IMG/VR virus record: IMGVR_UViG_3300028048_000057 | Span: 1 to 64,000 of that record | Reading direction: 5' to 3' (one strand) | DNA: 64,000 nt | DNA from: a virus | Lineage: Duplodnaviria > Caudoviricetes | Shown: piece after piece, positions 34,321 through 55,547 of the stretch | Layout: every line of letters begins with the position of its first letter | Numbering within the stretch: position 1 is the first letter of the stretch | Program-made: the position numbers and the translations under genes | Notes under the pieces: model-generated | What the model was told of the DNA's origin: nothing | Seen by the model: only the letters and a program-made list of their open reading frames with translations | Databases searched by the model: none

Positions 34321-37300
34321 ATGGAATTATATGATAAAGTAACTCAAGTATTAGATGATTATGGTATTCTTTATGGTGATATTGTAGAAAATGATGATGG
34401 TTCTATTAATATTGTTGGTGTTGAAGAAGATGAATGGGATGAAGTAGTTGATGCTATTAAAGAAGAATTAGGCCTTGATGTTTTAGTTCCAGATTCAGAC
34501 CATGATGAATTAGACAATGAATTAATTGTTAGAGAATCCTTAAAAGAATCTTGTGTAAAATATACAAAACCAACTAAAGAAGATATTGAAGAATGGGACC
34601 CTGATTTTGATATTTGTTGTAAAGATGTTGCTAATGGATTAGATAGTGGCTATTGGCATGGACAAACCTCAAGTGAAAGAAGTTGGGGATTAAGTGTTAA
34701 TGGTAAAGATGGAAATCAATTTAGTCCATTATTTGCAGATGTAGTTGCTTATGAAATTTCTTATCCAGTTAGAGATGGTTTATTTAGTTATAGTGGTTTA
34801 GATTGTGTTCCTAATAAATCTACATTCTCCTATATGAGTGAAGAAGATTGGAAAGATGAAGATAAATTAGAAACACTTAGAAATGATTTATTAAGTGTTG
34901 GTTGTGAAGAAGAAGAAATTAATAAATTCTTTAAAGATGAAATTAGTGAAATTGAATTCTATGTTGATTATGAAATTGATATTGATGATTTAGAAGAAGA
35001 TGAAGAAGAAACTGATGAATCTTTAAAAGAAGATAAAAGTTTTAAGGATTTAACAATTGAAGACATGTTCTTTGAAGTTTCTGGTAAGAAATTTAAAGTT
35101 TTTGATAAAAATGGTCACTTCACAAAAGAAGCATGGAAATTATATGATAAAGTAGCAAAGAAATTTGGAGATTATGATGAGTTTGATGCTCTTTGTGGTG
35201 AAGAAGGTTGTTTTGAAGATGATGAAGATATTCAATACCCTTCTAATGAATCTTTAAAAGAAGCAAAAGATGAAGATAAATTAGAAACCTTTGAAGATAA
35301 AATGGACTTCTTAGCAAAAGATGAACAAGAAGCAATTGATGGTTATGACAAAGTTATTGCTATGTTAAATCCAGATGAAGATGCTTTTGTTATTGAACAA
35401 TTAACTAAAATTAAAATTGAAGAAGAAGCACATAAAAAATATCTTGAAGATGTTAAAACTAATAAAGAGTTAGAATATACTGAACCTTTAGAACAAGATG
35501 AACTTGAAGAAGGTAAAACAAGTGCTCAAAAATATAATGATATGCTTCATAGAACTTTTGAGATGGCTAAAAAAGCCAATCTTGCTATGAAAGATTTCTT
35601 AATTAAAAATGGTGTTAGTGAAGAGGAAGCAGAAAAGTTATATCAAGATACAGGATTACATGGAAGTCCATTACAACAAAAATTAATTGACATGGGACTT
35701 AAAGATGAATTCTTTAGTAAATATGATTATAGTAAAGGTGTTATGAAAGAATCTAAACAAATTAAAGAAGCACAAGAAGGATTTACTACTTTCCTTAATT
35801 TAGAGTGTGGTGTATTATTAGAAGAAGACCACCCAGAATTTAAAGACTATTCAGTTGCTTATGACCATAAACATGGATATTATGATGAAACCTATCTCAA
35901 TTCTTTAGAAGGTGATTTAGAACTTCTTAAAGAGAGTGGATTAGATTATATCAAAAAAGGTGTTAATGGAACATATGCTATTTTAACTAAAGTAGATGTC
36001 CAAGGAAGCATGGAAGATGACTTTATTAAAGATGCTATCAAAGACATTGAAGATGGAATGTATATTGATAATAGTATTGAATTCTTAGATGGTGAACAAT
36101 TCAAAGCATCTAATGTCATTTGGAGTGCATACAAAGATGAGAATGGTGAAATCCATGAAAACTTTGTTGATACAAGTGTTACTGAAGAATGTAAAAAAGA
36201 ATTAAAAGAATACAATTTACCTAAAGATGCTAAACCATATAAAACATGTGGTGATAAAGAATATTATATTGCTACCTTTGATGATGTAGATAGAGCAATG
36301 ATGGGAAACAAAGCAACTCATACAATTGTCACTAAGAAAGTTGGTGGAGACTTTGATATGGGAAGTGCTAGTGGTTTAGACTTTAATAGTGAAGAAGAAG
36401 CCAAAAAGTGGATTGATGATGCATGCTCATTAAAAGAAGATGTTAGTGATGAAGTAGCAAGTAAATTACAAGCCTTATATGATGAAGGTAGAGTTTACTT
36501 TGACCTAGCCAAAGATAAAGATGGAGATGACTTCCTCATTGTTGATGGATGGGAAGATGTTAGAAAAATTCAAAAAGCATTAAAACCAGATTTTGAACCT
36601 AAAGATGAATATGACACAAGTGTCTTAGATGAATTATTTGACAATGGTTATCAATGGGGATTTAGAGATGAATACTCTAAATGTGATAGATGTGGAAAAG
36701 TAATTAGAACAGAAGCAGACTCTTATTCATGGGTTCCAGACTTCTTTGTAACAGAAGATGGAGAAATTATTTGTGGTGATTGTGTTAGAGAAAATCCTAA
36801 AGAATATTTAGAAACTTTATATAACAACCCAGAAAAGGCAAATACAATCTTAAGTGCTCAAGACTTAATTGATAATGGTTTTGAAAAGATTGATGGTGAC
36901 TATGAAGATGGTTGGTATGACAAACATGACTCACCAGAAGAAATCCTTAACAAGGCTTTAGAAGCACATCCTAATGGAGTATTTATTTTCCATATTAGTG
37001 GACAAGGACAATTTGCAACTCAATTTGAATTATGGGGTGCAGACCTTGACTTAGATGAATCTAAGAAAAAAGACATTAAAGAAGAAAATGAAGACCATTA
37101 TGTTGTTATCTATTATGAAGATGGTAGTCATGACATTTCTTATGGTGATTATGATAAATCTTGTAAATTTTATGATGAGTATGTAGAAAAATTAGGTTCT
37201 ACTATTGAATCAGGAAAGAAGATTGTTAAAGTTTTAAGATATAGTGAAAATGGTTGTGAAGAAAGTAAATCTTTAGAAGGATTTGAAAATATTGATGAAT

Positions 37301-37509
37301 CCTTAAAGGAATCCTACAAAGAAAATGACCTTATTGAATTTGAAGATGATGCACCTATGACTTTTGGTGATATTGTTGAAATGATGTACAATAGATTATC
37401 AAAGGAAGATAACTTAGTTGAGAACTTAGAAGAAGAAGCCCTCAAATGTGCTAAAAACTTCATTGAAGAAAAAGGTGGGCATAAAGCCACTAAAGATGCA
37501 GAAAAGTAA
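34321..37509 (+). CDS. Acidic multi-domain polyprotein (ferritin-like and Zn-ribbon domains, ESLKE linkers)
   Basis: ESLKE at 34534, 35017, 35248, 37297; DEQEAIDGY...EEEAH; CDRC...CGDC. Confidence 0.7.
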   Translation: MELYDKVTQVLDDYGILYGDIVENDDGSINIVGVEEDEWDEVVDAIKEELGLDVLVPDSDHDELDNELIVRESLKESCVKYTKPTKEDIEEWDPDFDICCKDVANGLDSGYWHGQTSSERSWGLSVNGKDGNQFSPLFADVVAYEISYPVRDGLFSYSGLDCVPNKSTFSYMSEEDWKDEDKLETLRNDLLSVGCEEEEINKFFKDEISEIEFYVDYEIDIDDLEEDEEETDESLKEDKSFKDLTIEDMFFEVSGKKFKVFDKNGHFTKEAWKLYDKVAKKFGDYDEFDALCGEEGCFEDDEDIQYPSNESLKEAKDEDKLETFEDKMDFLAKDEQEAIDGYDKVIAMLNPDEDAFVIEQLTKIKIEEEAHKKYLEDVKTNKELEYTEPLEQDELEEGKTSAQKYNDMLHRTFEMAKKANLAMKDFLIKNGVSEEEAEKLYQDTGLHGSPLQQKLIDMGLKDEFFSKYDYSKGVMKESKQIKEAQEGFTTFLNLECGVLLEEDHPEFKDYSVAYDHKHGYYDETYLNSLEGDLELLKESGLDYIKKGVNGTYAILTKVDVQGSMEDDFIKDAIKDIEDGMYIDNSIEFLDGEQFKASNVIWSAYKDENGEIHENFVDTSVTEECKKELKEYNLPKDAKPYKTCGDKEYYIATFDDVDRAMMGNKATHTIVTKKVGGDFDMGSASGLDFNSEEEAKKWIDDACSLKEDVSDEVASKLQALYDEGRVYFDLAKDKDGDDFLIVDGWEDVRKIQKALKPDFEPKDEYDTSVLDELFDNGYQWGFRDEYSKCDRCGKVIRTEADSYSWVPDFFVTEDGEIICGDCVRENPKEYLETLYNNPEKANTILSAQDLIDNGFEKIDGDYEDGWYDKHDSPEEILNKALEAHPNGVFIFHISGQGQFATQFELWGADLDLDESKKKDIKEENEDHYVVIYYEDGSHDISYGDYDKSCKFYDEYVEKLGSTIESGKKIVKVLRYSENGCEESKSLEGFENIDESLKESYKENDLIEFEDDAPMTFGDIVEMMYNRLSKEDNLVENLEEEALKCAKNFIEEKGGHKATKDAEK

Positions 37510-37556
37510 TCCTACTCATGGATTAACCTAAAAGTGGCTCAGAAAGGCTAAAAATA

Positions 37557-38273
37557 ATGGAAAAAGGCCAAAGAGTTAAAATTGTTAATACTAATTCTAT
37601 TTGGGATGATAAAGAAGGTGTCTTAGAAGATATTGAGGAAGAAAGATGTACAGTATTTGTAGATTTTATTCCAGAACAAAATAAAAAAGTAAGGCAATAC
37701 TTTAAGTTAGAAAATGTAGAACCAATAGATTCTTTTGATGAAGCCCTAAAAGATAAAGTTAGTGGTGAAGTGGGAGAATTAGAAAAAGACTTCAAAAATG
37801 GATATGGTTTATTAAAAACTAATAAAGGAAATACAATTCAAGTAGCCATTGATAACCTTGAAGAAGTAGAGGACGATGTTTCTTCTTCATTAAATGTTTT
37901 AGATGTTATAACTACAGAATCTTTTGAGGAAGATTATTTTAATTTACCTAATCCTAAAGAAGCAGATTGGTTCTTTGAAAAGAAAGAATCAAATAGTTTA
38001 ATGATTTTACAAAGATTAGGACTAGAAAAAACTATTCAACTAGGAAAGGCCAAAAAAGAATCTATTTCAAATAATAATAAATACAAAGGTGGAGTAACAG
38101 TTTATTCTTTATTTAAAGGTGCAGGAAGCGGGAATCAATTTAGAGCCTATTTTTATAGAGAAGGAAATACTTGTATCTTTGTAAGATGCTTGTTAAAGAA
38201 GACAACTAAAAATACATCAGAAGAAGATAAGGCAATTATGGACACCATAAATTATGCTTTATCTAAAAAATGA
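37557..38273 (+). CDS. KOW/SH3-like domains fused to RelE/Gp49-like domain
   Basis: GQRVKI...EGV.EDI...V; C-terminal RAYFY...FVRCLLKKT.K. Confidence 0.5.
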   Translation: MEKGQRVKIVNTNSIWDDKEGVLEDIEEERCTVFVDFIPEQNKKVRQYFKLENVEPIDSFDEALKDKVSGEVGELEKDFKNGYGLLKTNKGNTIQVAIDNLEEVEDDVSSSLNVLDVITTESFEEDYFNLPNPKEADWFFEKKESNSLMILQRLGLEKTIQLGKAKKESISNNNKYKGGVTVYSLFKGAGSGNQFRAYFYREGNTCIFVRCLLKKTTKNTSEEDKAIMDTINYALSKK

Positions 38274-38275
38274 TG

Positions 38276-38304
38276 TTGACAAATAATATAGACCTATTTA
38301 TAAT
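38276..38304 (+). promoter_or_regulatory. Consensus sigma-A/70 early promoter
   Basis: TTGACA-17 bp-TATAAT. Confidence 0.9.
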
Positions 38305-38330
38305 TGTGATTGAAGTGAGGTACTAGGAAT

Positions 38331-39092
38331 ATGGAATTACCAAAATTAACTAAAGAAATTGCTAAACAAATTGATGACAACTATCAAAAGTTCTTAAAGA
38401 ATGAAGAACTCAAAGAAGCATTAAGAGAAGATGATATGCTTAAAGCAAAGGCATTAGCAGAATATCTTGGTGTAGATGTTGAAGATATTGAAAATACAGG
38501 AATTGACCTCTATAAAGTAGATGGTGATGAATATTTAGTTCTAACAGATGAAGAGGCTACAGAAAAAGCAGAAGAAGAAATTCAAAATGTTTTTGATGAT
38601 TTAGGTTTAGATTCTTTTACTGATTCATTTAAAGAATGGATTATGAACAATTGTGTCTCTACAGGTAAAGTATATGATTGGATGTTAGATTCATATAGAA
38701 GTTATGTAGATGATATTGAATTAGAAAATGATTATACTTTTGGTAACAGACTTATTCAAGAACTCTATGATAATGGTTTATTAGAAGATGAAGATTTTGA
38801 AGTTGAAGATGGAGAAATCCTCTATGATGAATTAAGAGATTCTTCTATCTTAGATAGTAAAAAAGAAGAATATGCAAATCAATTAGCATCTACAATGGAC
38901 CCTATGGATTGGTTAAAAGAAATCTATAGTGAAAAAGATTTAGCAAAATTAATTGTAGATGAAGATATGATTGATATGGAAGCCCTAATTGAAGAATGTA
39001 TTAGATTAGATGGTAGAGGCCATTTCATTGCTTACTATGATGGAAATGAACTTGACCTTGGTAATGGCTTATTTGCATATCAAGTAAACTAA
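38331..39092 (+). CDS. Highly acidic protein, ArdA-like DNA-mimic candidate
   Basis: D/E-rich; EYLVLTDEEA and IDMEAL...DGRGHFIAYYDG; own early promoter and terminator. Confidence 0.5.
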   Translation: MELPKLTKEIAKQIDDNYQKFLKNEELKEALREDDMLKAKALAEYLGVDVEDIENTGIDLYKVDGDEYLVLTDEEATEKAEEEIQNVFDDLGLDSFTDSFKEWIMNNCVSTGKVYDWMLDSYRSYVDDIELENDYTFGNRLIQELYDNGLLEDEDFEVEDGEILYDELRDSSILDSKKEEYANQLASTMDPMDWLKEIYSEKDLAKLIVDEDMIDMEALIEECIRLDGRGHFIAYYDGNELDLGNGLFAYQVN

Positions 39093-39097
39093 ACAAT

Positions 39098-39125
39098 AAA
39101 AAGCAACCAAAAATGGTTGTTTTTT
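39098..39125 (+). terminator. Intrinsic terminator
   Basis: AAAAAGCAACCA-aaaa-TGGTTGTTTTTT. Confidence 0.8.
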
Positions 39126-39214
39126 ATTTTTCAATCAAAAATGGTTGCTAAAAAAGAAAGGGTAATAGAAAAAAGAAAGTAACATAAAGAAATAAAGATT
39201 ACCTAAAAGAAGTG

Positions 39215-39270
39215 TTGTATATGTTCTAATACATCCTATATAAATATAGTCTATATTATAACATATACAA
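39215..39270. repeat. Inverted repeat with nested palindromes
   Basis: TTGTATATGTT (39215-39225) / AACATATACAA (39260-39270), inner CTATAT-AA-ATATAG. Confidence 0.7.
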
Positions 39271-39324
39271 GAGTACAGGTCACTTTTTTACCTCTTTGTT
39301 ATAAGTTTTTGTCAAAAAAAATAT

Positions 39325-39353
39325 TTGACTAAAAACATAATAGAGTTTATAAT
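39325..39353 (+). promoter_or_regulatory. Sigma-A/70 promoter
   Basis: TTGACT-17 bp-TATAAT. Confidence 0.8.
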
Positions 39354-39371
39354 TTAACTAAAGGTATTATT

Positions 39372-39752
39372 ATGAGAACAGATATTACACTAGAATCTAT
39401 CATTAGCCTTAGATATAATGAAGAAAGAAACTATTCTTCTCTTAAAGCATCTAAAGTAGTAGAAGTATCTTTTGATATTATTAGAAAAATAAATAAACTT
39501 AGTAAAGAATGTTGGAATGATTTATCTATTCAATTTGCTATCTATAGACAAAACTTAGCATATTATAGAAGAAATGGTGGATTATATCCTAACTTAGATT
39601 ATCCTTTAACATATAAACAAAAGATTAGTCAACTTCAAGAAATTAAATATTTTATCCTTGATAATGTAGATAAGATTAAAAATAATAATTGGACTTATGA
39701 TATTGGATATTGTAAATACATAAGAGGACTTAGAGATATTCTTACATTGTAA
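39372..39752 (+). CDS. Hypothetical protein
   Basis: AAGGT RBS; own promoter. Confidence 0.6.
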   Translation: MRTDITLESIISLRYNEERNYSSLKASKVVEVSFDIIRKINKLSKECWNDLSIQFAIYRQNLAYYRRNGGLYPNLDYPLTYKQKISQLQEIKYFILDNVDKIKNNNWTYDIGYCKYIRGLRDILTL

Positions 39753-39806
39753 TGTATAACTTTAGTTGTATAATTAATTAAGAGTGCTTTATGTAACTCT
39801 TTTCAT

Positions 39807-39823
39807 TGCTAAATTTATTGATA
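39807..39823 (+). promoter_or_regulatory. Putative late promoter TGCTAAATTTATTGATA
   Basis: Extended motif upstream of 39846. Confidence 0.75.
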
Positions 39824-39845
39824 CAATAAATAAGGAGTTTTATAG

Positions 39846-42800
39846 ATGGATATAGATTCAAAGAGTACAAATAAGAATATTTGTAAAGAAGACTTAACTA
39901 GTGATATTGAATTAGTATCTAAGTCTTTTGGAACCTCTACACAACCATTTATGGGCCCTTCTTATATTTTACCTAATGGTAAATTTTTAAAAATAAGAAA
40001 TGCCAATATCAATATTTCTAGTAATGGAAGTGGAGATAGAGGATTAATCATTCACTTAGATGTTCAAAAATGGTTAAACAAACAACACAATAAAGAAGTA
40101 AGTAATATTGATAGTATAGATTTAGAAGAAGTTTGTATTAGAGTTAATACAGATATGGTAGAACATTATATTGTATTGCCTAAACAAAGACCTAATGATA
40201 ATCAGTTTGAAGCATTAAAGGATTGGATAGACTTCTACTTTGAAAAAAGAAATACTAATTTAACACTAGTTTCCTACTATGGTCCTACAGAGACTTATTT
40301 TGTAGGTACAGTTGCAGAAGATATTATTGATGATATTAAAGCATACTATACAAGAGGAATGTATTTTGAAAGTAAATCTTGTACAAAAGATAAACCTATA
40401 GTTATTAAAGAAGACTACACTCCTACAGAAGAAGATTTTCCATTTACTTTAGATGATATAGAAAATGAATTTCCTGATTTATTTAGTTCTAATTTTGAAT
40501 CTTGTGGAAATGCTTTTATTACTCCAGATGGAAGATTCATTCTTAGTGGAAAAAGATTTGATATGCATGCTGACTTTTCTTGGCAATGCTTAATGAACAT
40601 TGCTGGTAAGACAGAACAAGAAATTGAAACTGAGTGGGATACAAGTAAACTTTTAGATGCTTTTACTAAATATTTTGATTTAGTTAGAGTTAATGATGGT
40701 TCTAATAAAGGTTCAGAGGAAAGAGTTTATTTTGTAATTCCAAAAAATAGATTATCTAGAGGCCAATATGATGCTTTATTATCTTGGTTAGATTATATAC
40801 TAGAAAATAAGTTTTCTAAAAAGATTTATGATATTCAAGCATTTGTAGGAAATAATTATGCACATAAAAGATGGGATATATCTAATGATATTACAAGTGA
40901 TGAAATCATGGAGGATGTTGAGGGTGCTTTAATTAGAGGTTACTTTACTGAATCTCTTAAAGAAGAAGTTAGCGAAAGTGACCAAGAAATATTAAACATT
41001 TTAGATGAAACATTTGGTCAAGGTGATAGAATTGTAGATTGGTCAACTTATATTTTACCTAATGGACATTGTTTAGACTTTTGGAGTGATTGTATAAATG
41101 ATAAATATTTAAGTGATTCTCCAGAAGAATGGTTCACAGAAGATGAAGGTGAACACGCTAGATGTTGGGAATTCATGAATGCTATGTGGCCAGATAAATT
41201 TGAATCTTCTATTGAGTGTGAAGAATTTATGGATAAATATTGTATTAAAGTTAATATTAATTATCCATATGCTTCCCTTGCTACAAATAATGTTACATCT
41301 CAACAATGGAATTCATTAGAAAAAATTATGAATTGTCTTTTAGAACACCCAATAGATTATTATTGGATGGAATGCCCTAATGATGAAAAAGGAATGGTTA
41401 GTATCTTAACTAAAAAGGGAGATACTTGGTTAAACTTATTTGAACTAGGCCTTGAAGAATTCATGAAAGAAGTTAAAGAAGGATATACAAGAGGATTCTT
41501 TGAAAATTTAGATGAATATTTTGATGAAGTAGGATTTGAAGAAACTAATGAAGAATTTCCAGTATTTGCTAGTGATGAACCATATAGAATTAAAACTTTA
41601 ATCACAAAAGGTGATAAGGCTTATAGAATTTATTATGATAAGAGTACAGGAACTTTCTATCTCCAAGATGCTTTTGGTAATAGAACACATGGAGATATGC
41701 TAGACCTAGCCAAAGAAAATGGATGGATTACAGACCAAAGTTCTTTAGGTAAATACTTAGATACTGATTGGGATGGGTACATGGTTTTCATTCCATTCAA
41801 TTATGATAAAGAATTAAGATGGCACACAAGAATAGGTGAGGATGATTATTATGATTGTAGAGTTTATCCTTATGGTGTCATGTTTGTTAGAGATGATAAA
41901 GCATATGAAAACCCTCTTTTTAGTGCATTAGGAGAACCAGAAAGAGAAATTCATTATAAAGAGTCTAATGAAACTATAACTATTAGTGTAGGAGATAAAT
42001 CCTATGACTTAGATGTATGGGATGATTTAGGTGCTGAACCTAATGATGCAATCTCTTTGGATTTAGATAGTTTAGGTAAAAAGAAAAAAGACCATAATAA
42101 ATTTGAATATGTTTTAGATATGGTTAAGTCTTTAGGATTTAAAGTTGCTAATTCTGAAAGAAGATATGAACAAAAAGAATACATTAATTTTGCAAATAGA
42201 TTTTATGATGAATATCAATTAGTAAGAGATATAGATAAAGATGAACCTTGGACCTTAAAAGATGAGGAAGGAAATGTTTTAAATGATTCTTTAGATTTTA
42301 ATGATAGTGATAATTGGAATGTTATTTCTTCTTTACAAGATGCTAAAGATGATGGCATAGATGATATAGATGATGATTTACTTGATTTAGATGATTTAGA
42401 CTATGATGACATTGAAAGAGAATCTTTAGATGAAGGAGTTGATAAATACTATAGATTAGAACTTGAAGACCCTTGGGGAGGAAGGTCTGGCCTTATACTA
42501 GGTGCTTTTGAAATGATTCCAACAAAAGAGACTATTGAGGAATTTCCTGAAGATTTTGAAGAATTGACAGATGATGAGAGAAGAACATATTATGAAATTG
42601 ATAGAATAATTTCTAAGTTATCTGAAATTAAATGTCCTGCAGTAAATTCTAAAAACATTTTTGCTTTTACAAAAGAGGCTTACAATAAATATAAGGAAGA
42701 TATAAAATATCTACAAGAATTAGTATCTAAAATAGGTATGAAAGTTATTATTAATGAAGTAGATGTAGATGATTTAGATATAGAGTATAAGGATGATGAC

Positions 42801-45800
42801 CAAATTGCTTTTGATGTAAGAAAGTATAATCCAAGAGAAATAACTGAATCAAAACAAGATATTGAAAAGTTCAAACAATGGGCGGGAGAGAAACTTGCTA
42901 ATAGATTTTTTGCTATTAAAGATAGAATTAAAGATAATGATAAAGATATGAGAGATATCTATTGGTGGATGACTCAAGCAAATAAATTTTTTGGTGATGA
43001 TGAGCAAGTCCTAAAACAATTAAAAGATTTTGTTAAAGAACTTGAATCAATTCCAACAAAAAAAGAGAGAAATAAAAATGCTAGAGAAGGTTCAGAAAAA
43101 GTCTATGATGATGGAAGATGGTTAGTTTTAAAAATTAATACATATGAAGCATCTGTTAAATATGGTAAAGGTACTGAATGGTGTATTACAGGAACTAACT
43201 CAAGTGATGATGAAGGAAACGGTGGAAGATATGATTTTGGAAAACACTCTAAAGGTGCTCAAATTTATTTCTATATTGATAGAAGTAAAAATAATAAATA
43301 TGCTTTAGAATTTAAAGATTTACATAATTGGTGTTTGTGGAATGAATCAGATTGGGTTGAGTGTGGTGAAGGTAAATTATTTAAACAAGGATTAGATGTT
43401 CAATCAGGAGAGACTTGGAATGCTTATGACTCAGGAGGAAAGCATCCTAATTTTCCAAACATTCAAGGATTACCAGACTTAAATAAAGCATATGAGGATT
43501 TAGCAAAAGAACAAGGTTGGGATAAACCTATTATTTTAGAGGAAATTGAAAAAACATTTAAGTTCCCTAATACTCCTACAATGCAAAGAGCATTACAATC
43601 TTTAGAAAAAGATGGATATAAATTAGAAACAATCAGAATAGAAGATTTAGTTAAAGATAATAATCTTTTAGATAACAAAGAATTAGATTATCATAAAGCA
43701 ATTTGGGGACCAAATCCAGATGATTATAGAATGGATGATATGGAAATTGATTCATGGAATTTTAATGATGCAATGTCTTGTGTTAGAAAAGATAATAAGT
43801 TATTATTAAATAATGGTAAACATAGAACAAGAGCCCTTTATAATAGTGGATATGAATTTATAGAAATTCCTGTTTTAAGTGAATCACTAAATGAATCAAA
43901 CAAGGAGTTAGATTATATTCATGAAATGGATGGAGATTATGTGGACATGAAAGAACTTGAAAATGTCACATACAAACAATTAGTAGATAATGATTTAGTA
44001 ATTAATCCAACTAATAAGTTATATCATAGCACTCCTGCAAGCAATTTAGAAAGTATTAAACAAAATGGATTGAGAATAGATAATAAGAATTTATGGTCTA
44101 TGTCTAAATCAGGAAGGATTTATTTTGCACTAGACCCAGATGAATCTATAGAATATACAGAGTATGCATATCAATGGGGAGCCTCTAATGTAGAAGATGT
44201 TATTTTATTGGAAGTTCCTATTGATGCTTTAGATTTAAATAAACTTTATGTTGATACTAATGAAGATGAAAATGGATATTGTATTGAAGGAAAATTGTGT
44301 TTGATGTCTCTTGAATATAGAGATAATGTTCCAGCATCTAGTATTAAAATTGTAAAAATTATAAAAGAAGATGAAATGGATGAATCTCTCAAAGAAAAAA
44401 TAGTTAAGAAAGGAAATAAGTGGCAAGTTCAATCAGAAAAAGGAAAGAACTTAGGTACTTATGATACTAAGAAAGAAGCAGAAGATAGACTTAAACAAGT
44501 TCATTATTTTAAACATATGAATGAATTTATAGATGAAGTTCCAACAAAATATTCAGAAGAAACAATAACCGATGAATTAAGTGAAGTTAAAAGATTATTA
44601 AATAAAGGAAATGTTAGTTATAGAGGATGCTATGACACCAAGGATAATGTAGTTGGTTTAAGTGAATTAGAATTAGAGATTCATGATAATGTTGAAAGAG
44701 CAATGGTAAAGAATGGATACTCTTCTAATTTCTTACATAGATTTTTAGTTTTTGATAAAAAATATTATGATGAAAATAGTATTGATGATGAAGTAGATTA
44801 TTATGATATACCTCTAGAACAATATGAATATGATAATTTTTATTTAGTGTGGGTGGTTGAAAAAGGTAAATCATTTACTAAAACAGAATTGTATAATGTA
44901 TTAGGAAAACCTATTAAGAAATTGAGATACATAAAAGAATCATTTAAAGAAGATTTAAAAGACAATCAAGTTGTATATAACTTTGATAGAGAATTAAACT
45001 CTAATGAAGTACTTTTATATCATCAAACAAGTGAAGATAAATTAAAGAAAATTCTTAAAGATGGTTTTATAAAACATGATGTTTGGGCACAAGAGAATAT
45101 AGACACATGGAATTATGGAGGATATGCTATTGGATTTGCAATAGATAAAGATAGAGTGCATAAACCAAATGATATAGATAGAATAGTTTATGTAGATATC
45201 CCTAAAGAAGATTTTGTATGCATTCTTGATTCTAGAGGTAGAACTTCAATAGGTAAAGAGAAATTTAAAAGTGAATTTGAATTAGTAGAATCAAAGGAAG
45301 ATTTTGAAAAATTTAAAGTATGGTGTAATGATGATAACTTATATAATAGATTTATGAAGTTAAGAAACAGATTAAATGGACAAGAAAAAGATATCTATTA
45401 TTGGATGGGCCTTGAAAAGAAATATGGAAAACATGGGGCTATTCAAGAATTACTCATCACCCTTAGAGATTTAGAAAGAACACCTACTAGAAAAGAAAAA
45501 GATGAACTAGCCAAAGAAGGGTCTATACTTTTATATAATCAAAATGGTTGGAAAGTATATAAAATAGAAACTCAAGAAGCATCACAAAAATATGGTAAGA
45601 ATACCATGTGGTGCATTAGTGGTGAAGGTGGATATGATATAGGGGATGGTTTTTGGGAAGGACATGAAGACAATACTTACTTCTATATCCATGGAAATGA
45701 AAAGTATGCTTTGATTTGGCCTAAAGGAGCCAAAGTTTGGGATATTTGGAATGATGAGGATGAAATAATTCCTTATATACCTAATGCTCCTAAAGTAGAA

Positions 45801-46064
45801 GGGTTGCCAGATGTAAGTAAACTTCCAGACTTTATTACAACCAATGTTGCTAAGTTATACAACATAAGTGTAGATGATATTAAAGATGTAAAAAGTGCAT
45901 CTTATGATTCAGAGTTAATGGATTTATTCTTAGATTATGATTCTAAGCAAAATTATATAGTTGAGTTAAAAGATGGAACAACTAAATATTGTTATGTTAA
46001 AGAATTCACAGATTTCATTGATGTAACAGAAGAGATAGAAGAACTTATTGATGAATATTTATAG
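39846..46064 (+). CDS. 2072-aa polyvalent polyprotein (ART-like x2, ParB-like, PcfJ-like x2, other repeated domains)
   Basis: LYHST/LYHQT..I..G, NGKHRTRAL, two EAS.KYGK.T.WCI domains; linkers ESLKE 40950 and 44382, ESLDE 42420, ESLNE 43881. Confidence 0.75.
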   Translation: MDIDSKSTNKNICKEDLTSDIELVSKSFGTSTQPFMGPSYILPNGKFLKIRNANINISSNGSGDRGLIIHLDVQKWLNKQHNKEVSNIDSIDLEEVCIRVNTDMVEHYIVLPKQRPNDNQFEALKDWIDFYFEKRNTNLTLVSYYGPTETYFVGTVAEDIIDDIKAYYTRGMYFESKSCTKDKPIVIKEDYTPTEEDFPFTLDDIENEFPDLFSSNFESCGNAFITPDGRFILSGKRFDMHADFSWQCLMNIAGKTEQEIETEWDTSKLLDAFTKYFDLVRVNDGSNKGSEERVYFVIPKNRLSRGQYDALLSWLDYILENKFSKKIYDIQAFVGNNYAHKRWDISNDITSDEIMEDVEGALIRGYFTESLKEEVSESDQEILNILDETFGQGDRIVDWSTYILPNGHCLDFWSDCINDKYLSDSPEEWFTEDEGEHARCWEFMNAMWPDKFESSIECEEFMDKYCIKVNINYPYASLATNNVTSQQWNSLEKIMNCLLEHPIDYYWMECPNDEKGMVSILTKKGDTWLNLFELGLEEFMKEVKEGYTRGFFENLDEYFDEVGFEETNEEFPVFASDEPYRIKTLITKGDKAYRIYYDKSTGTFYLQDAFGNRTHGDMLDLAKENGWITDQSSLGKYLDTDWDGYMVFIPFNYDKELRWHTRIGEDDYYDCRVYPYGVMFVRDDKAYENPLFSALGEPEREIHYKESNETITISVGDKSYDLDVWDDLGAEPNDAISLDLDSLGKKKKDHNKFEYVLDMVKSLGFKVANSERRYEQKEYINFANRFYDEYQLVRDIDKDEPWTLKDEEGNVLNDSLDFNDSDNWNVISSLQDAKDDGIDDIDDDLLDLDDLDYDDIERESLDEGVDKYYRLELEDPWGGRSGLILGAFEMIPTKETIEEFPEDFEELTDDERRTYYEIDRIISKLSEIKCPAVNSKNIFAFTKEAYNKYKEDIKYLQELVSKIGMKVIINEVDVDDLDIEYKDDDQIAFDVRKYNPREITESKQDIEKFKQWAGEKLANRFFAIKDRIKDNDKDMRDIYWWMTQANKFFGDDEQVLKQLKDFVKELESIPTKKERNKNAREGSEKVYDDGRWLVLKINTYEASVKYGKGTEWCITGTNSSDDEGNGGRYDFGKHSKGAQIYFYIDRSKNNKYALEFKDLHNWCLWNESDWVECGEGKLFKQGLDVQSGETWNAYDSGGKHPNFPNIQGLPDLNKAYEDLAKEQGWDKPIILEEIEKTFKFPNTPTMQRALQSLEKDGYKLETIRIEDLVKDNNLLDNKELDYHKAIWGPNPDDYRMDDMEIDSWNFNDAMSCVRKDNKLLLNNGKHRTRALYNSGYEFIEIPVLSESLNESNKELDYIHEMDGDYVDMKELENVTYKQLVDNDLVINPTNKLYHSTPASNLESIKQNGLRIDNKNLWSMSKSGRIYFALDPDESIEYTEYAYQWGASNVEDVILLEVPIDALDLNKLYVDTNEDENGYCIEGKLCLMSLEYRDNVPASSIKIVKIIKEDEMDESLKEKIVKKGNKWQVQSEKGKNLGTYDTKKEAEDRLKQVHYFKHMNEFIDEVPTKYSEETITDELSEVKRLLNKGNVSYRGCYDTKDNVVGLSELELEIHDNVERAMVKNGYSSNFLHRFLVFDKKYYDENSIDDEVDYYDIPLEQYEYDNFYLVWVVEKGKSFTKTELYNVLGKPIKKLRYIKESFKEDLKDNQVVYNFDRELNSNEVLLYHQTSEDKLKKILKDGFIKHDVWAQENIDTWNYGGYAIGFAIDKDRVHKPNDIDRIVYVDIPKEDFVCILDSRGRTSIGKEKFKSEFELVESKEDFEKFKVWCNDDNLYNRFMKLRNRLNGQEKDIYYWMGLEKKYGKHGAIQELLITLRDLERTPTRKEKDELAKEGSILLYNQNGWKVYKIETQEASQKYGKNTMWCISGEGGYDIGDGFWEGHEDNTYFYIHGNEKYALIWPKGAKVWDIWNDEDEIIPYIPNAPKVEGLPDVSKLPDFITTNVAKLYNISVDDIKDVKSASYDSELMDLFLDYDSKQNYIVELKDGTTKYCYVKEFTDFIDVTEEIEELIDEYL

Positions 46065-46107
46065 AATAAACTATTGATTATTGGTAGGTTTTGATTTACA
46101 ATATTAT

Positions 46108-46118
46108 TGCTAAATTTA
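46108..46118 (+). promoter_or_regulatory. Putative late promoter TGCTAAATTTA
   Basis: Recurrent motif upstream of 46151. Confidence 0.7.
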
Positions 46119-46150
46119 GAGAAGATTTACATTAACAAGGAGAATTCCAA

Positions 46151-48085
46151 ATGAGTGTTAGAAAATTATTAGAAGATTTAGACATTGAAAATATAGATGA
46201 TGAAATAATTGTAGATGACAATATGGATGTTGTTGATGACATCAAAGATAGATTAATTGTTACAGATGAAGAAGGTAATCTAGTTTCAGCACATGTATAT
46301 GCTAATACAATTTTGATTACTTATGAATTAACAGAAGAAGAATTAATTAAATTACTTAAAGAGAGTGGAGAATACTTTAAATTCTTTACTTTTACTTTAG
46401 AAGGTGTAGATGAATTAGTTATAGGTAATGAACTTTGTACTATTGAAGATATTAAAGAAGAATTTTTATCCTCTTTAGAAGATGGAGAAGAATTAGAATT
46501 TGATGTTGTTGAAATCAAAGATGAGGGTGAAGATGAACAACCAAAAGCAGAGGAACAAGAACTTACAGAATCCATGAAGAGTGAAGTTACTAAATGGTGG
46601 AAAGATGTAGAAGATGCTAACATTGCCATGAAGTGGGGATTTAGAATTGACAATGAAGGTTGTGATGAAGAAGAGATGCATGCAGCAATGTTTGATATGT
46701 TAGATGAACTTAAAGAAGTTGGTGCTTTTGAATTGTTTAATAGTGGTAAAAAGATTTACAATAAATATGCTAAATACTCCAAATATAATGAATCCATTAT
46801 TGAAGGTTGGGGTGAAGATGGAAAAGACTACATTTACTATTGTGTAAGTGATGGTATGAACCCAAGAAATTCTATTATTTTACCTAATAGTGAAGATGCT
46901 AGAGAAAGAGCAATTCAAATTGCAAAAGATAATCAACCAAAATATAAATATGTTTCTATGTTTAAAAATGGGGAAGAAATTGTTATTTGGAATGCGGAAG
47001 ACTTTGACCCAAGCATTAATAATATGCATGTTGAAAACTTAAAAGAATGTAAAGTTAAAGTTAGTGCATTGCATGATGATGGTTCTTTAGCACATGAAGA
47101 AGTGGTTGAAATTGAAGGCCCTTATGATAGTGGTAAAATTCTTACAAAGTTTTTTGAAAAGAATCCAGAGTATAAACAATCAATGTTATCATTAGACTTT
47201 ATTGAAGAATCTATTAAAGAAGAAGTTAAAGAAGGACCAAGTGATATTTTTGGTTATATTAATGGTGATTTAGAATCATTTGACCCAAAAGCATTTATAG
47301 ATAAAGTTAAAGCAAGAAAAACTTCTTTACATACAAATAGAATAATTAAAGATACAGACAATTTAAAGATTTGTCATCATATTGTTTGTGAAACTTTAGG
47401 TTGGGGTGATGAACCAAGGGTTTATATTGATGTAGTTGAAGAAACTTGGACAAGAAACCCAGGTGATGCAGATGACATCAATTCTTATTCAGGAGAAGAA
47501 ACCCAAGATAGAATTTTAATGAAGAATTGTGGTAAAGGTGAAGAGGGATTTGCTAAGGCCATTGAAGTATTAGAACAATATAAAAAAGATACTTTAGGTA
47601 AGAATGAATCTTTACAAGAAGATAGAAAAAATCCTACTCCAGTTGAATTTAGAGAAAGAATTTCAAAAATCAAAACCTATCAAGAACTCAAAGATTATTT
47701 AAATGAATATCCAGAACTTTATTTAGATAGCAATGGTGTTGATGAATTATCAGTTTGGACTACTCTTGATGATGGAGAAATGGCTGGTGATATTATTGCT
47801 AATGTTGACCAATTCTTTGATGATTGGTATAAAGAACATCATTGTGATGAATCTTTAAATGAAAGTGGCTCTCATGAAGAAAATATTTCTAAAATTAGAA
47901 CTTATGGTGAATTAAATAGATACTTAGAAAAACATCCAGAATTAATACTAAAAAGTCCAGGAAAAGGTGTTTTAAATGTATTTAAGAAAGATGAAGATGG
48001 AGTTGAAGAATTTGTTTGTGATGTTAGCAAATTCTATAGAGCCTTTAGAAAAGAAGCAGATAAAGCAGATATAAGAATTAAATAA
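46151..48085 (+). CDS. Acidic multi-domain polyprotein
   Basis: ESIIE, ENLKE, ESIKE, ESLQE (47606), ESLNE (47849) linkers; duplicated ISKIxTYxEL..YL...PEL domain. Confidence 0.7.
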   Translation: MSVRKLLEDLDIENIDDEIIVDDNMDVVDDIKDRLIVTDEEGNLVSAHVYANTILITYELTEEELIKLLKESGEYFKFFTFTLEGVDELVIGNELCTIEDIKEEFLSSLEDGEELEFDVVEIKDEGEDEQPKAEEQELTESMKSEVTKWWKDVEDANIAMKWGFRIDNEGCDEEEMHAAMFDMLDELKEVGAFELFNSGKKIYNKYAKYSKYNESIIEGWGEDGKDYIYYCVSDGMNPRNSIILPNSEDARERAIQIAKDNQPKYKYVSMFKNGEEIVIWNAEDFDPSINNMHVENLKECKVKVSALHDDGSLAHEEVVEIEGPYDSGKILTKFFEKNPEYKQSMLSLDFIEESIKEEVKEGPSDIFGYINGDLESFDPKAFIDKVKARKTSLHTNRIIKDTDNLKICHHIVCETLGWGDEPRVYIDVVEETWTRNPGDADDINSYSGEETQDRILMKNCGKGEEGFAKAIEVLEQYKKDTLGKNESLQEDRKNPTPVEFRERISKIKTYQELKDYLNEYPELYLDSNGVDELSVWTTLDDGEMAGDIIANVDQFFDDWYKEHHCDESLNESGSHEENISKIRTYGELNRYLEKHPELILKSPGKGVLNVFKKDEDGVEEFVCDVSKFYRAFRKEADKADIRIK

Positions 48086-48092
48086 TTAATTT

Positions 48093-50708
48093 ATGAATTG
48101 GAATGATTTTTTAGTAAAAGGATATAAAGAATTAGATAATGCCCACTTACATTTTAATGTTGAAGGTGGGACTTTTGAATTTGATAATGATAGAGATGCT
48201 AGACAAGGTGCAACAATCTTAGGAAGACTCTATGGTTTTGATAATGTCATTCAAAGTGGATGGAATGTTATAGTTTCTTTTCCTGATGATGTTGATGAAA
48301 ATTTAATTAAAAAGTTAACTGAAGATTTAATTGTAATTGAACCTTATGAGGCTAAGGAAAAGTTAGCAAATCTAAAGCATCAAATTGAAAATGAAGATAC
48401 ACCAGAGAACAAAGAATCTTTAATGACATTAATGGATATTTATTTATTTCAAACATATAAACCTTCAGATAAGGAAGAGTCCAATATTACAGATGCAGAA
48501 TGGGAAGAATATTCTAAATTTTTAAATAGTGAGAAAGAAAAATATCAAAAGCATCTTAAGGAATCTAATTCAGAAACAATAGAATTATACTATGATAAAC
48601 TACCTATCAAAACTAGGTATAAGGTATTTAATGCTACTGAAATATCTCCAGAAGAGTGGGACTATAAAGAAGGATATGATTCTTGGACTTATGAAGTAGA
48701 TAAAGATTATGTTATAGATGTCTTATATGATACTATATTAGATGAAAAAGAATTTGAAAATTATTCAGAAGAAGAATTAGTAAAATACATTAATGATAAT
48801 TTTGATGACTTATTGGATAAATATTACAAAGAGGTTTTAAAATATTTTGAAGATAGTGCCATTGAAGATTATGAAGAACATAAGCGTGATGAAGATGATT
48901 GGGATGATTATAGAGAATCTTTAAATGAAGATTTAAAATCTAAGTTAGAGAAAAAGTTATCTGAAGACATGGATAATTTACCAGGAGTCTATTATGTAGT
49001 TAAATCAGATATGACTAAAAAAGGATATGGTGCACTAAGAAATATTCTGTATAGAGATGTAAATAAAGAAAAGGCATTAAAGAATTTAAAATTACATAGA
49101 CAACTTAATAAGGATAACCAAAATGTAAAGGTGTTTTTAGTATATAATAATAAAATACTAGATGAAGATATTGAAGATAGAGAAAATACTATTTTACAAG
49201 TTGTTAAAGAACATGTTGATGAATTATTGTCTTCAATGAAAGATTCACCAGTAGTAAGAAAAAGAAAAGGATGGGAAGAATGTTCTTTTGGTTATAAATT
49301 ACCAAATAGAAATATTAATATTACATATGGTTATAAGAAAGATAATAAGGTATTATTTAAAGTTGAATTCTATTCATCAAAACCTAAATATCTTGTTGCA
49401 AGTCCACAATACTATTGGTTAGTTTATAATAAAGACACAAAAGATTTACATTTTATTGATGGCCTTCAAAATTTAGAATATGAAGGATTAGAAGAAGATA
49501 TTGAAAAACACGATACTTTAAATCCTAAATTATTTGATAATAATGAATTAAAACCAGAAGTAAAAGAAGCACTTTTAAAAGTAGTAGATGCTTTTGTAGA
49601 AGATTTAAAAGATAGTGAAATAGATATTAAAGTTAAAGATGTTGTTGTAATAGGAAGCAATGTAAATTATAATTATAATAAAGATAGTGATATTGATTTA
49701 CACATTATTGCAGATTCAGACATTTCTCAATATCCAGGTGAATTATTAACTTTATTGTACAGTGCATATAGAAGTATATTCAATAAAAATTATGATATTA
49801 CAATTAAAGGAATTCCATGTGAAGTATATGTTGAATTAGATGAATTACATGGAACTAGTAATGGTGTTTATTCACTATATAATGGTTGGTTAAAAGAACC
49901 AGAGCAAAAGAATATTCCAGATATTGATATGGATACTTTTAATAAATTATTTGATGAGTGGGAAGATAAGTATTTTGCATTGTTAGATGAGATAGGAATT
50001 ACTCCAGAAGAAATGCTTGCTCTAAACGAGAGAGAAGAAGATAAAGAAGCAAGTGAAAAGGTATATAATTTTATTGAAGATATTTATGACCTTAGAAAAG
50101 AATCAATTGCTCAAGAAGGTGAATTTGGTTTAGGTAATCTTGTATTTAAAGAATTTAGAAACCTTGGATACTTAGATGCTTTAAAACAATTAACTAAAAT
50201 TCTAAAGGGAAAAGAATTATCTTTAGAAAATATAAATGAAGATTTCTCACAAGATACTTTAGAATCTATATACAAATATACACTAGATAATGATGGTGGG
50301 ACTTTTGATTTAAGAAGTGGTAAAAGCCTTTCAGGAAATGATAGCATGAAAAATGTCTATAGTGTTGAATTCAAAAGTCATGATTGGAGAAAAAGAATAG
50401 GCCAAGTAGATAAACAAGAAGTATTAAATGCTATTGAATCATTATTAAGAAGTGATAGTGTTAAAGATGCAGATGCTATCGGTACTTGGAGTAGTGGAGA
50501 AAATGAAAGACCACAATCAAGTATAGGATTAAATAAAATCTTTAAAGATAGAGAAGAAGCAGAAAAATTTGCTTTAGACCATAATCAAAAGGCTATAGGT
50601 GAATTCAATAGTAATGGAGAATATGAAGAAACTATCTATAGAAAAGACTTTAAATATAAACCTCATAAAGAAGATGAGCCAAAAGAGCAAGACAAAGAAG
50701 AGAAATAA
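48093..50708 (+). CDS. Polyprotein with Pol-beta-superfamily nucleotidyltransferase domain
   Basis: VVIGSNVNYNY..DSDIDLHII and EVYVE; ESLNE 48915, EGLEE, ENINE linkers. Confidence 0.75.
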   Translation: MNWNDFLVKGYKELDNAHLHFNVEGGTFEFDNDRDARQGATILGRLYGFDNVIQSGWNVIVSFPDDVDENLIKKLTEDLIVIEPYEAKEKLANLKHQIENEDTPENKESLMTLMDIYLFQTYKPSDKEESNITDAEWEEYSKFLNSEKEKYQKHLKESNSETIELYYDKLPIKTRYKVFNATEISPEEWDYKEGYDSWTYEVDKDYVIDVLYDTILDEKEFENYSEEELVKYINDNFDDLLDKYYKEVLKYFEDSAIEDYEEHKRDEDDWDDYRESLNEDLKSKLEKKLSEDMDNLPGVYYVVKSDMTKKGYGALRNILYRDVNKEKALKNLKLHRQLNKDNQNVKVFLVYNNKILDEDIEDRENTILQVVKEHVDELLSSMKDSPVVRKRKGWEECSFGYKLPNRNINITYGYKKDNKVLFKVEFYSSKPKYLVASPQYYWLVYNKDTKDLHFIDGLQNLEYEGLEEDIEKHDTLNPKLFDNNELKPEVKEALLKVVDAFVEDLKDSEIDIKVKDVVVIGSNVNYNYNKDSDIDLHIIADSDISQYPGELLTLLYSAYRSIFNKNYDITIKGIPCEVYVELDELHGTSNGVYSLYNGWLKEPEQKNIPDIDMDTFNKLFDEWEDKYFALLDEIGITPEEMLALNEREEDKEASEKVYNFIEDIYDLRKESIAQEGEFGLGNLVFKEFRNLGYLDALKQLTKILKGKELSLENINEDFSQDTLESIYKYTLDNDGGTFDLRSGKSLSGNDSMKNVYSVEFKSHDWRKRIGQVDKQEVLNAIESLLRSDSVKDADAIGTWSSGENERPQSSIGLNKIFKDREEAEKFALDHNQKAIGEFNSNGEYEETIYRKDFKYKPHKEDEPKEQDKEEK

Positions 50709-50710
50709 CT

Positions 50711-50727
50711 TGCTAAATTTATTGATA
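50711..50727 (+). promoter_or_regulatory. Putative late promoter TGCTAAATTTATTGATA
   Basis: Extended motif upstream of 50761. Confidence 0.75.
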
Positions 50728-50760
50728 AAGTTATAATATAAATTAGGAGATTAGATAGAT

Positions 50761-51501
50761 ATGGCAATGAGTGTTAAAGACTTAGCCAAGTGGCTTAAAC
50801 AAGAAGTAGAATTCTTAAAAGAAAACCAAGATTATGTTGGTGGTTGGATTCAATTAGGTAATGGTCTTGCTGCAGTTGTTTTATGGACTCCAGGTTGGGG
50901 TGATGAAAAAAGAGATGATTGCATTCAAGCAGAAGATAACCCAGATTATGCATTGTGTGCAGGAATTAAAATCTACAATCCACATGATACACCAGATGGT
51001 TGGTTAATGCTTAGTGATAAAGAAGGAAATATTGTTACAGAAGAAAGTGGTATTTCACCAAAAGAAGATTATGAAGCAGAAGCAAAATGGTTATTAGATG
51101 ATTTTGCTAAAGTTGAAACTGTTGATTATGATGAAGATGGTGTTATTACAAGTGAAATTGAAGAACCTAAGAAAGAAGAAGAATCTTTAAAAGAATCAAA
51201 AGGTGATTATTTAGATTCTAAATATAAAAAGATTATTGGTGAATATTTTGATTACACAGGTGACTTTGAATTCTTAGATATTGTTGCTGATGTTATTTCA
51301 AGAATTGATGATTTTGGGGATGAAGAAGATATTTGGAGAGCCATTGATGATGCATTAATTTATAATGATGACCAATGGACCATTGCTCAATTCTATGCTT
51401 CAAGTCCTAGTGAATGTGATTGGGATTCCATTATTTCAGATTTTGATGGTGATATCCACTCAATTTGTGATTTAATTATTAGTTCAGGAGATGAAGAATA
51501 A
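50761..51501 (+). CDS. Two-domain acidic protein; C-domain Ocr-like
   Basis: ESLKE at 51181 separates domains; IWRAIDDALIYNDDQW. Confidence 0.6.
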   Translation: MAMSVKDLAKWLKQEVEFLKENQDYVGGWIQLGNGLAAVVLWTPGWGDEKRDDCIQAEDNPDYALCAGIKIYNPHDTPDGWLMLSDKEGNIVTEESGISPKEDYEAEAKWLLDDFAKVETVDYDEDGVITSEIEEPKKEEESLKESKGDYLDSKYKKIIGEYFDYTGDFEFLDIVADVISRIDDFGDEEDIWRAIDDALIYNDDQWTIAQFYASSPSECDWDSIISDFDGDIHSICDLIISSGDEE

Positions 51502-51878
51502 TGGCTAGAGAAAAACAAAGAATTTTTAAAGAATCACTTTCTCCTAAACTTCCTAATAAAAAAGTGAATGAAAGTGCTTCTAGTTTAGAAGAAGGTAAGA
51601 AACATCAATTTTTAGGTTTAATGGTTGGTAGAGATGCTTATGCTCCTACGGAAGTTGGAACCATGACAGTTGAAGAACTCATTGAAGAATTACAAACATA
51701 TGACATGAGTCTTAAAGTAGTCTTTGTCAATGATGGTGGATATACTTATGGAGGTATCTCTTCATCAGATATTAGGGAATTCTCATATGAAGATGATGAC
51801 GATGAGGATATTGAAGAATCTAAAGAAAAAGGTCACATGAAGTTTAAACCAGAGAGAAAACCTTCAATTAAAAAGTAA
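51501..51878 (+). CDS. Small protein with MTVxELIxxL domain flanked by xES sites
   Basis: TAATG coupling; FKESL, VNES, LEEG, IEES. Confidence 0.6.
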   Translation: MAREKQRIFKESLSPKLPNKKVNESASSLEEGKKHQFLGLMVGRDAYAPTEVGTMTVEELIEELQTYDMSLKVVFVNDGGYTYGGISSSDIREFSYEDDDDEDIEESKEKGHMKFKPERKPSIKK

Positions 51879-51896
51879 ATTAATTCAATAAATAAA

Positions 51897-51925
51897 AAGA
51901 GAGCCCATAAATATGGGTTTTTCTT
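51897..51925 (+). terminator. Intrinsic terminator
   Basis: AAGAGAGCCCATA-aa-TATGGGTTTTTCTT. Confidence 0.7.
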
Positions 51926-51941
51926 ATATATTAAGAATTAG

Positions 51942-51958
51942 TGCTAAATTTAATGATA
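51942..51958 (+). promoter_or_regulatory. Putative late promoter TGCTAAATTTAATGATA
   Basis: Extended motif upstream of the neck gene. Confidence 0.75.
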
Positions 51959-51990
51959 AAAATAAAGATTAATGTGAGGACTATCTATAG

Positions 51991-52701: not shown

Positions 52702-52748
52702 GTTGATGTATAATAAATAAGATGTTATAAATTAGGAGAATTTATAAA

Positions 52749-55535: not shown

Positions 55536-55547
55536 GGAGATACTAAA

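Follow-up and report, generated by a model that had tools for sequence, protein, structure and literature searches.

The subject of this study is a single giant gene on a 64,000-nucleotide stretch of viral DNA (the window), which comprises positions 1 to 64,000 of the IMG/VR record IMGVR_UViG_3300028048_000057 (Duplodnaviria; Caudoviricetes). The source record is 161,442 bases long, with an estimated completeness of 91% and a G+C content of ~29%; nearly all genes of the window are carried on the + strand. The recognizable genes follow in the order terminase (18490), portal (20522), S77 protease, gp23-type capsid protein, a run of large unnamed proteins, head-tail adaptor (51991) and tail sheath (58751). 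The open reading frame (ORF) at 39846-46064 belongs to this unnamed run, downstream of the capsid gene and upstream of the tail genes. As a first-pass annotation made from the letters alone had stated, the frame is open throughout and encodes one protein – hereafter P0001 – which we split into 14 units: A1, A2, A3, C1, U5, U6, P1, B, ART1, D, C2, ART2, P2 and T (Table 1). Our concern is how this chain of units is assembled, and what the short linkers at its joints may do.

Table 1. Units and linkers of P0001, and other genes of the window that bear on its interpretation (positions are those of the window; residues are those of P0001)
Feature	Position	Strand	Residues	Remarks
Polyvalent cargo polyprotein gene P0001 (putative)	39846..46064	+		open, 2,072 residues; 45 homologues of 1,190-3,354 residues, many with PF18760 ART-PolyVal
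A1, unnamed domain A	39930..40370	+	29-175	from profiles; AF2 model with predicted local distance difference test (pLDDT) score 74
A2, end ...RGYFTE	40500..40952	+	219-369	A1 profile E 6e-31; 57% identity to L001 copy
Linker ESLKE (GAATCTCTTAAAGAA)	40950..40964	+
A3, end ...RGFFENLDE	40998..41510	+	385-555	A1 profile E 2e-16
C1	41511..42080	+	556-745	from profile search
U5, acidic tail	42081..42419	+	746-858
Linker ESLDE	42420..42434	+		residue-exact homology breakpoint versus P0003/P0004
U6, unnamed unit	42423..42845	+	860-1000
P1, "PcfJ-like" (label unconfirmed)	42846..43520	+	1001-1225	from ESKQD to PIILEE
B, ParB-like (lead only)	43521..43883	+	1226-1346	NGKHRTRA motif
Linker ESLNE	43881..43895	+
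ART1, Tpt1/KptA-PARP-like ADP-ribosyltransferase-fold candidate	43884..44384	+	1347-1513
Linker ESLKE	44382..44396	+		directly 5' of unit D
D, DUF2188-like basic 43-residue module	44385..44531	+	1514-1562	KIVKKG...FKHMNE
C2	44532..44939	+	1563-1698	C1 profile E 4.5e-8
Linker ESFKE	44937..44951	+
ART2, short remote relative of ART1	44940..45290	+	1699-1815	hhalign probability 95.5%
P2	45291..45830	+	1816-1995
C-terminal tail T	45831..46061	+	1996-2072	P2-type units precede T in 10 proteins; P-T pair terminal in 9, internal in P0016
Separate 319-residue gene	15749..16708	+		10-residue leader MQYNRLQLLE; homologue fused in frame in polyprotein P0024 at ...ERLNE/S
Prohead protease (Peptidase_S77, T4 gp21 type)	23223..24782	+		fused to coiled-coil scaffold-like tail rich in x-x-E-S
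Major capsid protein, gp23-type	24830..26242	+
Eight-gene block	34321..57107	+		20/30 ES[LFIMV]xE motifs of the genome

Since plain self-BLAST hides off-diagonal matches, repeats were detected with masked windows and per-unit comparisons, and with profiles built from 46 homologous proteins (P0001 and 45 others). Masked self-BLAST returned matches between P1 and P2 (residues 998-1214 versus 1812-1992; E 2e-26, 40% identity), between copies of domain A (108-176 versus 295-370, E 3e-5; 21-173 versus 383-552, E 0.01) and between copies of domain C (521-608 versus 1519-1607, E 3e-5). The A1 profile recovers both A2 and A3, that of C1 recovers residues 1560-1717 and that of P1 recovers P2 at 1.5e-55. 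The repeats first noticed – A three times, C twice and a "PcfJ-like" domain twice – are therefore real, the name of the last being a lead without a Pfam match. The proposed pair of ADP-ribosyltransferase (ART)-like units is a remote and partial relation: ART2 has no homologue among the 46 proteins and no match to the ART-PolyVal profile, and its alignment to the ART1 family profile (E 1.3e-8) extends over 63 columns in the N-terminal half only.

The age of these repeats is told by their trees. A1, A2 and A3 fall in separate deep clades, as do P1 and P2, each with orthologues in other phages, and same-family units within one protein have a median identity of 28% and a maximum of 45% (D aside). 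Recent tandem duplication was rejected on these grounds: by sequence divergence (25-45% identity) and tree position the repeated domains are old paralogues. No paralogue of any P0001 unit was found elsewhere in its own genome at E 0.001 or better, and a tblastn search of isolated phages with the whole protein gave no match.

Naming the units proved harder than delimiting them. Pfam returned nothing above cut-offs for P0001, and detected no peptidase family. ART1 comes close to two families (PARP, 23 bits versus a cut-off of 26.7; Tpt1, 16.2 versus 26) and matches phrog_5470 at 0.007, and PF01885 is present in relatives 72-76% identical to it; ART1 is likely to adopt a Tpt1/KptA-PARP-type ADP-ribosyltransferase fold. 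Sequence searches of the PDB with ART1, ART2 and the ParB-like unit were empty. Both units listed at first as singletons, the ParB-like one and the one marked by KKGNKW, do occur once. The second, unit D, scores 14.2 bits against DUF2188 (PF09954; cut-off 22), and its 78%-identical copy in P0002 reaches 24.7 bits. The ParB label of unit B is a lead only: it has no Pfam or PDB sequence match to ParB/Srx (PF02195), ParB_N is found on 18-21% of members in two Atlas clusters, and the GKHR motif was spotted by eye. Similarly, PcfJ (PF14284) has no Pfam match in the P units of P0001 or in four relatives scanned whole; a weak hint comes from one Atlas cluster matching P, 33% of whose members carry PF14284, and in BFVD proteins named PcfJ-like are matched at E 4e-3 to 0.4, more weakly than unnamed phage proteins at 1e-6. 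Domain P found no fold match in the PDB. Across the 46 proteins its copies form three clades, each with a position of its own – N-terminal or nearly so, always just before T, or internal with an insert – which hints that P may serve assembly or anchoring rather than an effector function.

Domain A, recognized by YILPNG...CIRVN...Q...RGxF (39930-41510), is a widespread viral domain that also exists as separate genes of ~165 residues. An exhaustive profile search collected 591 representative clusters, whose host proteins range from 143 to 3,235 residues with one to four copies each; the separate homologues were missed by word-based search. There is no Pfam match, ten separate-gene forms included, and the structural model found nothing with Foldseek in the PDB. 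A gelsolin-like label was considered and not adopted, the matches of a wide structural search (Z at most 6.8) lying within the tool's stated noise.

Taken as a whole the protein is easier to place. It holds ~14 units of at least nine types in a phage gene context, and polyvalent proteins are recognized by 2 to 15 unrelated domains. Its relatives carry additional modules – PF18760 ART-PolyVal, GNAT, DUF5662 and SprT-like – by which the family can be counted with the polyvalent proteins defined by Iyer et al. 2017; the PF18760 signature is not above cut-off in P0001 itself and is carried by homologues sharing its units. By its domain content, P0001 is a polyvalent protein in the sense of those authors.

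Comparison of the predicted proteins shows modules being swapped, acquired and dropped at the joints among relatives. Almost every one of the 46 architectures is different. P0003 and P0004 share residues 13-834 and 1813-2072 of P0001 at ~75% identity, and between these flanks the cassettes are different or absent: all three proteins match through ...DDLDYDDIERESL and then diverge, homology stopping inside ...DDIERESL/ (here and below a slash marks the junction). Beyond that point P0004 passes directly to P2-T, P0001 to eight other units, and P0003 to a series of units, GNAT and ART-PolyVal among them. For the DYDDIERESL junction, a degenerate DNA pattern had no match in contigs of viral or metagenome origin. 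With P0018 the P1 block shares 88% identity solely from /ESKQD to PIILEE/. The nucleotidyltransferase unit of a neighbouring 871-residue protein ends in KELSLENINE/ here and in KELSLESLNE/ in P0046, where a P unit follows; this Pol-beta-type unit (49488-50270) is N-terminal or internal in the P-unit polyproteins P0046, P0043 and P0045, always with the same end, KELSLE[SN][LI]NE.

The nearest relatives of the units tell of the same mosaic. For A1-U5 and P2-T they are P0003 and P0004 (63-88%), for P1 P0018 (88%), for B P0006 (66%), for ART1 P0010, P0009 and P0007 (76%) and for C2 P0043 (56%); ART2 has none. In L001, where the gene order around the polyprotein matches that around P0001, the syntenic orthologue reads P-x-R-C-x-D-A-x-D-A-x-A-P, and P0001 itself reads A-A-A-C-U5-U6-P-B-R-D-C-R'-P-T (R, ART1; R', ART2). 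Units also cross gene borders. Residues 871-1160 of P0024 are a homologue of the separate gene at 15749-16708, joined as a C-terminal module; that gene has no family match, lies upstream of the terminase and has a leader that ends L-L-E, and in L003 the homologue of its product is part of a second polyprotein. Part of the polyprotein encoded at 34321 likewise corresponds, in L001, to a homologue that another gene encodes.

How general is the link between junctions and joints? Among 850 distinct breakpoints, taken from blocks of at least 50% identity and scored within a distance of 8 residues, 14% lie near the strict motif ES[LF]xE against 3% of random positions, which is 4-5 times chance; for the looser hydrophobic-x-E-[SDEKN] the figures are 48% and 19%. 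In the orthologue comparison that had been suggested as a check, modules are gained, lost or swapped at joints, several junctions being exact to the residue. The initial idea that the array grows by duplicating or importing linker-bounded units survives as exchange at joints and fails as recent duplication. The main source of change in the arrays may be whole cassettes that pass from phage to phage or from gene to gene, together with fusion to, and fission from, separate cargo genes, and junctions at joints would survive because the modules stay intact and cleavable.

The joint itself has a recognizable form. Strict sites end or begin units at residues 369, 859, 1346, 1513 and 1698 of P0001; in the 46 giant proteins the commonest five-residue words are ESLNE (41 copies) and ESLKE (39), and the logo of the joints reads E-S-L-[KN]-E-[SDE]. 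The genome holds 30 copies of ES[LFIMV]xE against 6.6 expected, and those of the eight-gene block of Table 1 are concentrated in only 14% of proteome residues (binomial 4e-11); two further copies are in a 907-residue late protein at 156 kb. The claim that each unit starts or ends at an xxE(S) site holds in that every internal boundary has E-S or hydrophobic-x-E, five of them in the strict form; but hydrophobic-x-E alone occurs within 8 residues of 40% of random positions and, being so common by chance, leaves only the longer motif informative.

Unit D offers a view of the joint from outside the polyprotein. In almost all of 57 viral loci it is preceded by hydrophobic-x-E, with or without E-S (for example LTE/KIVK and FNE/VIRK), and among copies the DNA identity begins at the GAA of L-x-E and stops at M-N-E. 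Identity of the unit (44385-44531; also L027, L037, L051, L057 and others) reaches 96% between phages in which the remaining units agree at 50-70%, and its conservation extends to synonymous sites. Across the 57 loci it is found as a separate gene of ~50 residues, at the N-terminus of proteins of ~200-400 or ~900-1,000 residues, or inside polyproteins. The separate genes start with MISFKE/ or MKTFKDYLEE/, leaders that end in hydrophobic-x-Glu; the latter, we presume, resembles the targeting peptide of T4 IPIII. Because units cross gene borders and separate forms have short leaders, joints are probably former leaders, and arrays would grow by fusion of cargo genes as well as by cassette exchange; since leaders of 5-10 residues already end in hydrophobic-x-Glu, a former leader could serve as a joint.

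What could recognize such a joint? The window encodes a candidate. Its prohead protease scores 29.3 bits against PF03420 (cut-off 27) and matches phrog_207 at 1e-36, and the protease-scaffold fusion recurs, 50% identical, in two related phages with such polyproteins. For proteases of the gp21 type the published rule is cleavage after Glu, with little else required; in T4, Alt is processed at ITE-6 and LTE-619, and the internal proteins have 10-residue targeting leaders that gp21 removes (PMC5694885, PMC9026906). The S77 logo calls for Glu at P1 with a hydrophobic P3, at exposed sites; in sequence the joints agree with it, showing E-S-L-x-E at five joints and hydrophobic-x-E at all boundaries, the short logo being frequent by chance. 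Leaders of 5-10 residues are present in the separate D-unit genes and in ORF 15749. We therefore consider it probable, from these patterns, that P0001 is a cargo chain of ~14 independently folding modules which is packed in the prohead, where the S77 protease cuts it after Glu at its joints, and which leaves the head with the DNA on ejection. The chain would be synthesized late and loaded into the prohead, where the protease would cut after Glu at each joint, the likeliest bond being L-x-E/ (the second Glu). The first Glu may also be cut in some joints, since a conserved Y-V-x-E-[SG]-L follows directly after the catalytic domain of the protease in three phages and [LV]-x-E-S abounds in its tail. 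Once freed, the pieces – ADP-ribosyltransferase-fold units, ParB-like unit, small basic D, and A, C and P – would be ejected with the DNA and could act ahead of any phage gene expression. In the protein encoded at 23223-24782, the scaffold-like coiled coil of ~340 residues has 12 Glu-Ser pairs against 4.6 expected.

Several findings weigh against this account. The strict motif lies at only 14% of homology breakpoints. At P3 of the first Glu a hydrophobic residue stands in 47% of sites (background 34%), and which of the two Glu precedes the scissile bond is ambiguous. The distant homologues P0039-P0046 have zero or one strict motif, except P0043 with three. The capsid protein has no E-S at all, from which it follows that the protease does not need Ser after Glu. 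The proteins of the eight-gene block share no visible N-terminal targeting peptide or motif. Most units are without an assigned function from Pfam or fold searches, and cutting, packaging and ejection are read from a sequence pattern in an uncultured phage.

The alternatives differ in what they make of the linker. One, already raised in the first-pass annotation and in our view doubtful, concerns the mechanism of shuffling: linker DNA would act as microhomology that steers recombination to the joints, making the bias mutational and not only selective. DNA repeat families are indeed centred on linkers, three junctions are residue-exact, and GAATCTTTAAAAGAA, allowing one mismatch, has 10 copies in the window where 0.06 would be expected; yet all ten are in sister genes. 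The P0001 gene has no copy at that threshold, and its own five linkers differ at synonymous sites and have little in common beyond GAATC, ~5-8 bases. Codon bias suffices to account for the exact 15-mers (4 of 11 ESLKE sites, against ~1.5 to 2.5 expected from codon frequencies by our own arithmetic), and linker DNA differs between phages (GAATCTCTCAAAGAA versus GAGTCGTTGACAGAA) beside a D unit that is 80-88% identical. The codon class of the linker serine is frozen: TCN is used at 20 of 20 sites in the window and 13 of 13 in L001 (4 of 7 in L003), other Glu-Ser pairs using it in 61% of cases in the window and 48% in L001 (Fisher 1.7e-4 and 7.9e-4), with AGY making up ~40% of serine codons. This fits linkers that are copied with cassettes and do not arise anew, and does not show that recombination is guided. 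Counted as a DNA site, GAATC is present 161 times where 116 copies are expected, strict linkers accounting for ~20.

That same invariance of the serine codon, which as a mark of descent needs no protease, can be turned to a second and unlikely alternative, namely that the protein stays uncut – a multidomain polyvalent or structural protein – with ESLxE as a flexible, helix-capping spacer inherited with the cassettes. Delivery of uncut proteins has precedents in N4 virion RNA polymerase, ArdC and TraC1 (PMC5512222), and the lack of a visible targeting peptide in the block proteins agrees with it. But a passive spacer is expected to drift, and the motif is the most conserved word where the modules are 25-60% identical; moreover it is shared by all eight genes of the head-tail block, follows the Glu-P1 rule of the encoded S77 protease, and separate versions of units carry short leaders obeying the same rule. 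Least probable of all is cutting by another agent, a host protease or an unrecognized peptidase module, before packaging or after ejection: embedded peptidases, possibly post-injection, were proposed by Iyer et al. (PMC5512222), a SprT-like metallopeptidase is present in the relatives P0019 and P0025 and several P0001 units have no assigned fold, but no peptidase family was detected in P0001, Glu cleavage with a hydrophobic P3 is the published gp21-type logo, and the motif is found also at the protease-to-scaffold boundary of the S77 protein.

Cleavage at the joints by the capsid protease leads to a broader and more tentative idea, which we put forward as possible but rather improbable: that the ESLxE joint is a portable "cargo tag", at once the former targeting and cleavage leader of a separate head-cargo gene and a seam for cassette exchange. 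Any tagged gene might then be fused, packed, freed and injected, and the tag would amount to a dedicated evolvability device for counter-defence arsenals that are processed in trans by the capsid protease. Inheritance of linkers with their cassettes would, on the cargo-tag idea, explain the frozen TCN serine codon.

Two further observations concern the genes just upstream of P0001. Promoters and terminators are no more frequent than expected by chance. In front of two small late-block genes stand a perfect TTGACA-17-TATAAT (38276-38304) and a near-perfect sigma-70-type promoter (39325-39353). The homologues of genes 37557 and 38331 form a single gene in L001.

Should the capsid protease indeed cut the joints, this lineage would ship a whole enzyme set into the cell with its DNA from few genes, and could re-sort that set by cassette swaps at a fixed seam. 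The polyvalent-protein concept would, if this is true, be extended from self-processing chains to chains processed in trans. The joints would also allow injected phage proteins to be found in metagenomes by a simple rule of sequence, and would mark natural boundaries for expressing unassigned modules, such as domain A with its many clusters and no family model; and they offer a model from nature for how foreign proteins could be loaded into capsids.

Polyvalent proteins, the mosaic way in which they evolve and their proposed release by embedded peptidases (zincin-like, assemblin-like) have been published with no linker motif described, as have mosaic duplication and rearrangement in a Helicobacter prophage family (Iyer et al. 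2017, PMC5512222). In a literature search of incomplete coverage we found neither a conserved joint peptide for a capsid protease acting in trans nor cassette exchange mapped to such a joint. P0001 resembles the polyvalent proteins of Iyer et al. in being a giant polypeptide with many unrelated conflict-type domains (ART and ParB-like, with GNAT and ART-PolyVal in relatives) and in its expected delivery with DNA, the gene lying between capsid and tail genes. It differs in that no peptidase is detected in the chain, one conserved joint peptide fits a protease encoded elsewhere, and exchange points map to that joint.

The closest parallel in processing is with T4, whose Alt and IPI-III are packaged in the head, co-injected with DNA and cut by gp21 (MEROPS S77) after hydrophobic-x-Glu; they include an ADP-ribosyltransferase, and the joints of P0001 fit the rule. 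The leaders of the separate D-unit genes and of ORF 15749 have the form of the 10-residue core-targeting leaders of T4. But T4 encodes every cargo in its own gene with a single leader, whereas here up to 14 putative cargos are concatenated and the leader-like peptide is repeated as an internal joint. In phiKZ, 201phi2-1 and SPN3US the inner-body or ejection proteins are similar in that a gp21-related protease (gp175/gp245) processes many head proteins by cutting them after Glu, and at more than one site; those cuts, however, mostly remove propeptides of single proteins at S/A/G-x-E or A-x-E, and no chain of exchangeable enzymes has been described. Exchange of cassettes at conserved boundaries is shared with polymorphic toxins, which, unlike P0001, vary mainly at their C-terminal tip. 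Finally, as with the polyproteins of RNA viruses, one product would be cut into several proteins; those polyproteins, unlike P0001, carry their own protease and keep a fixed order.

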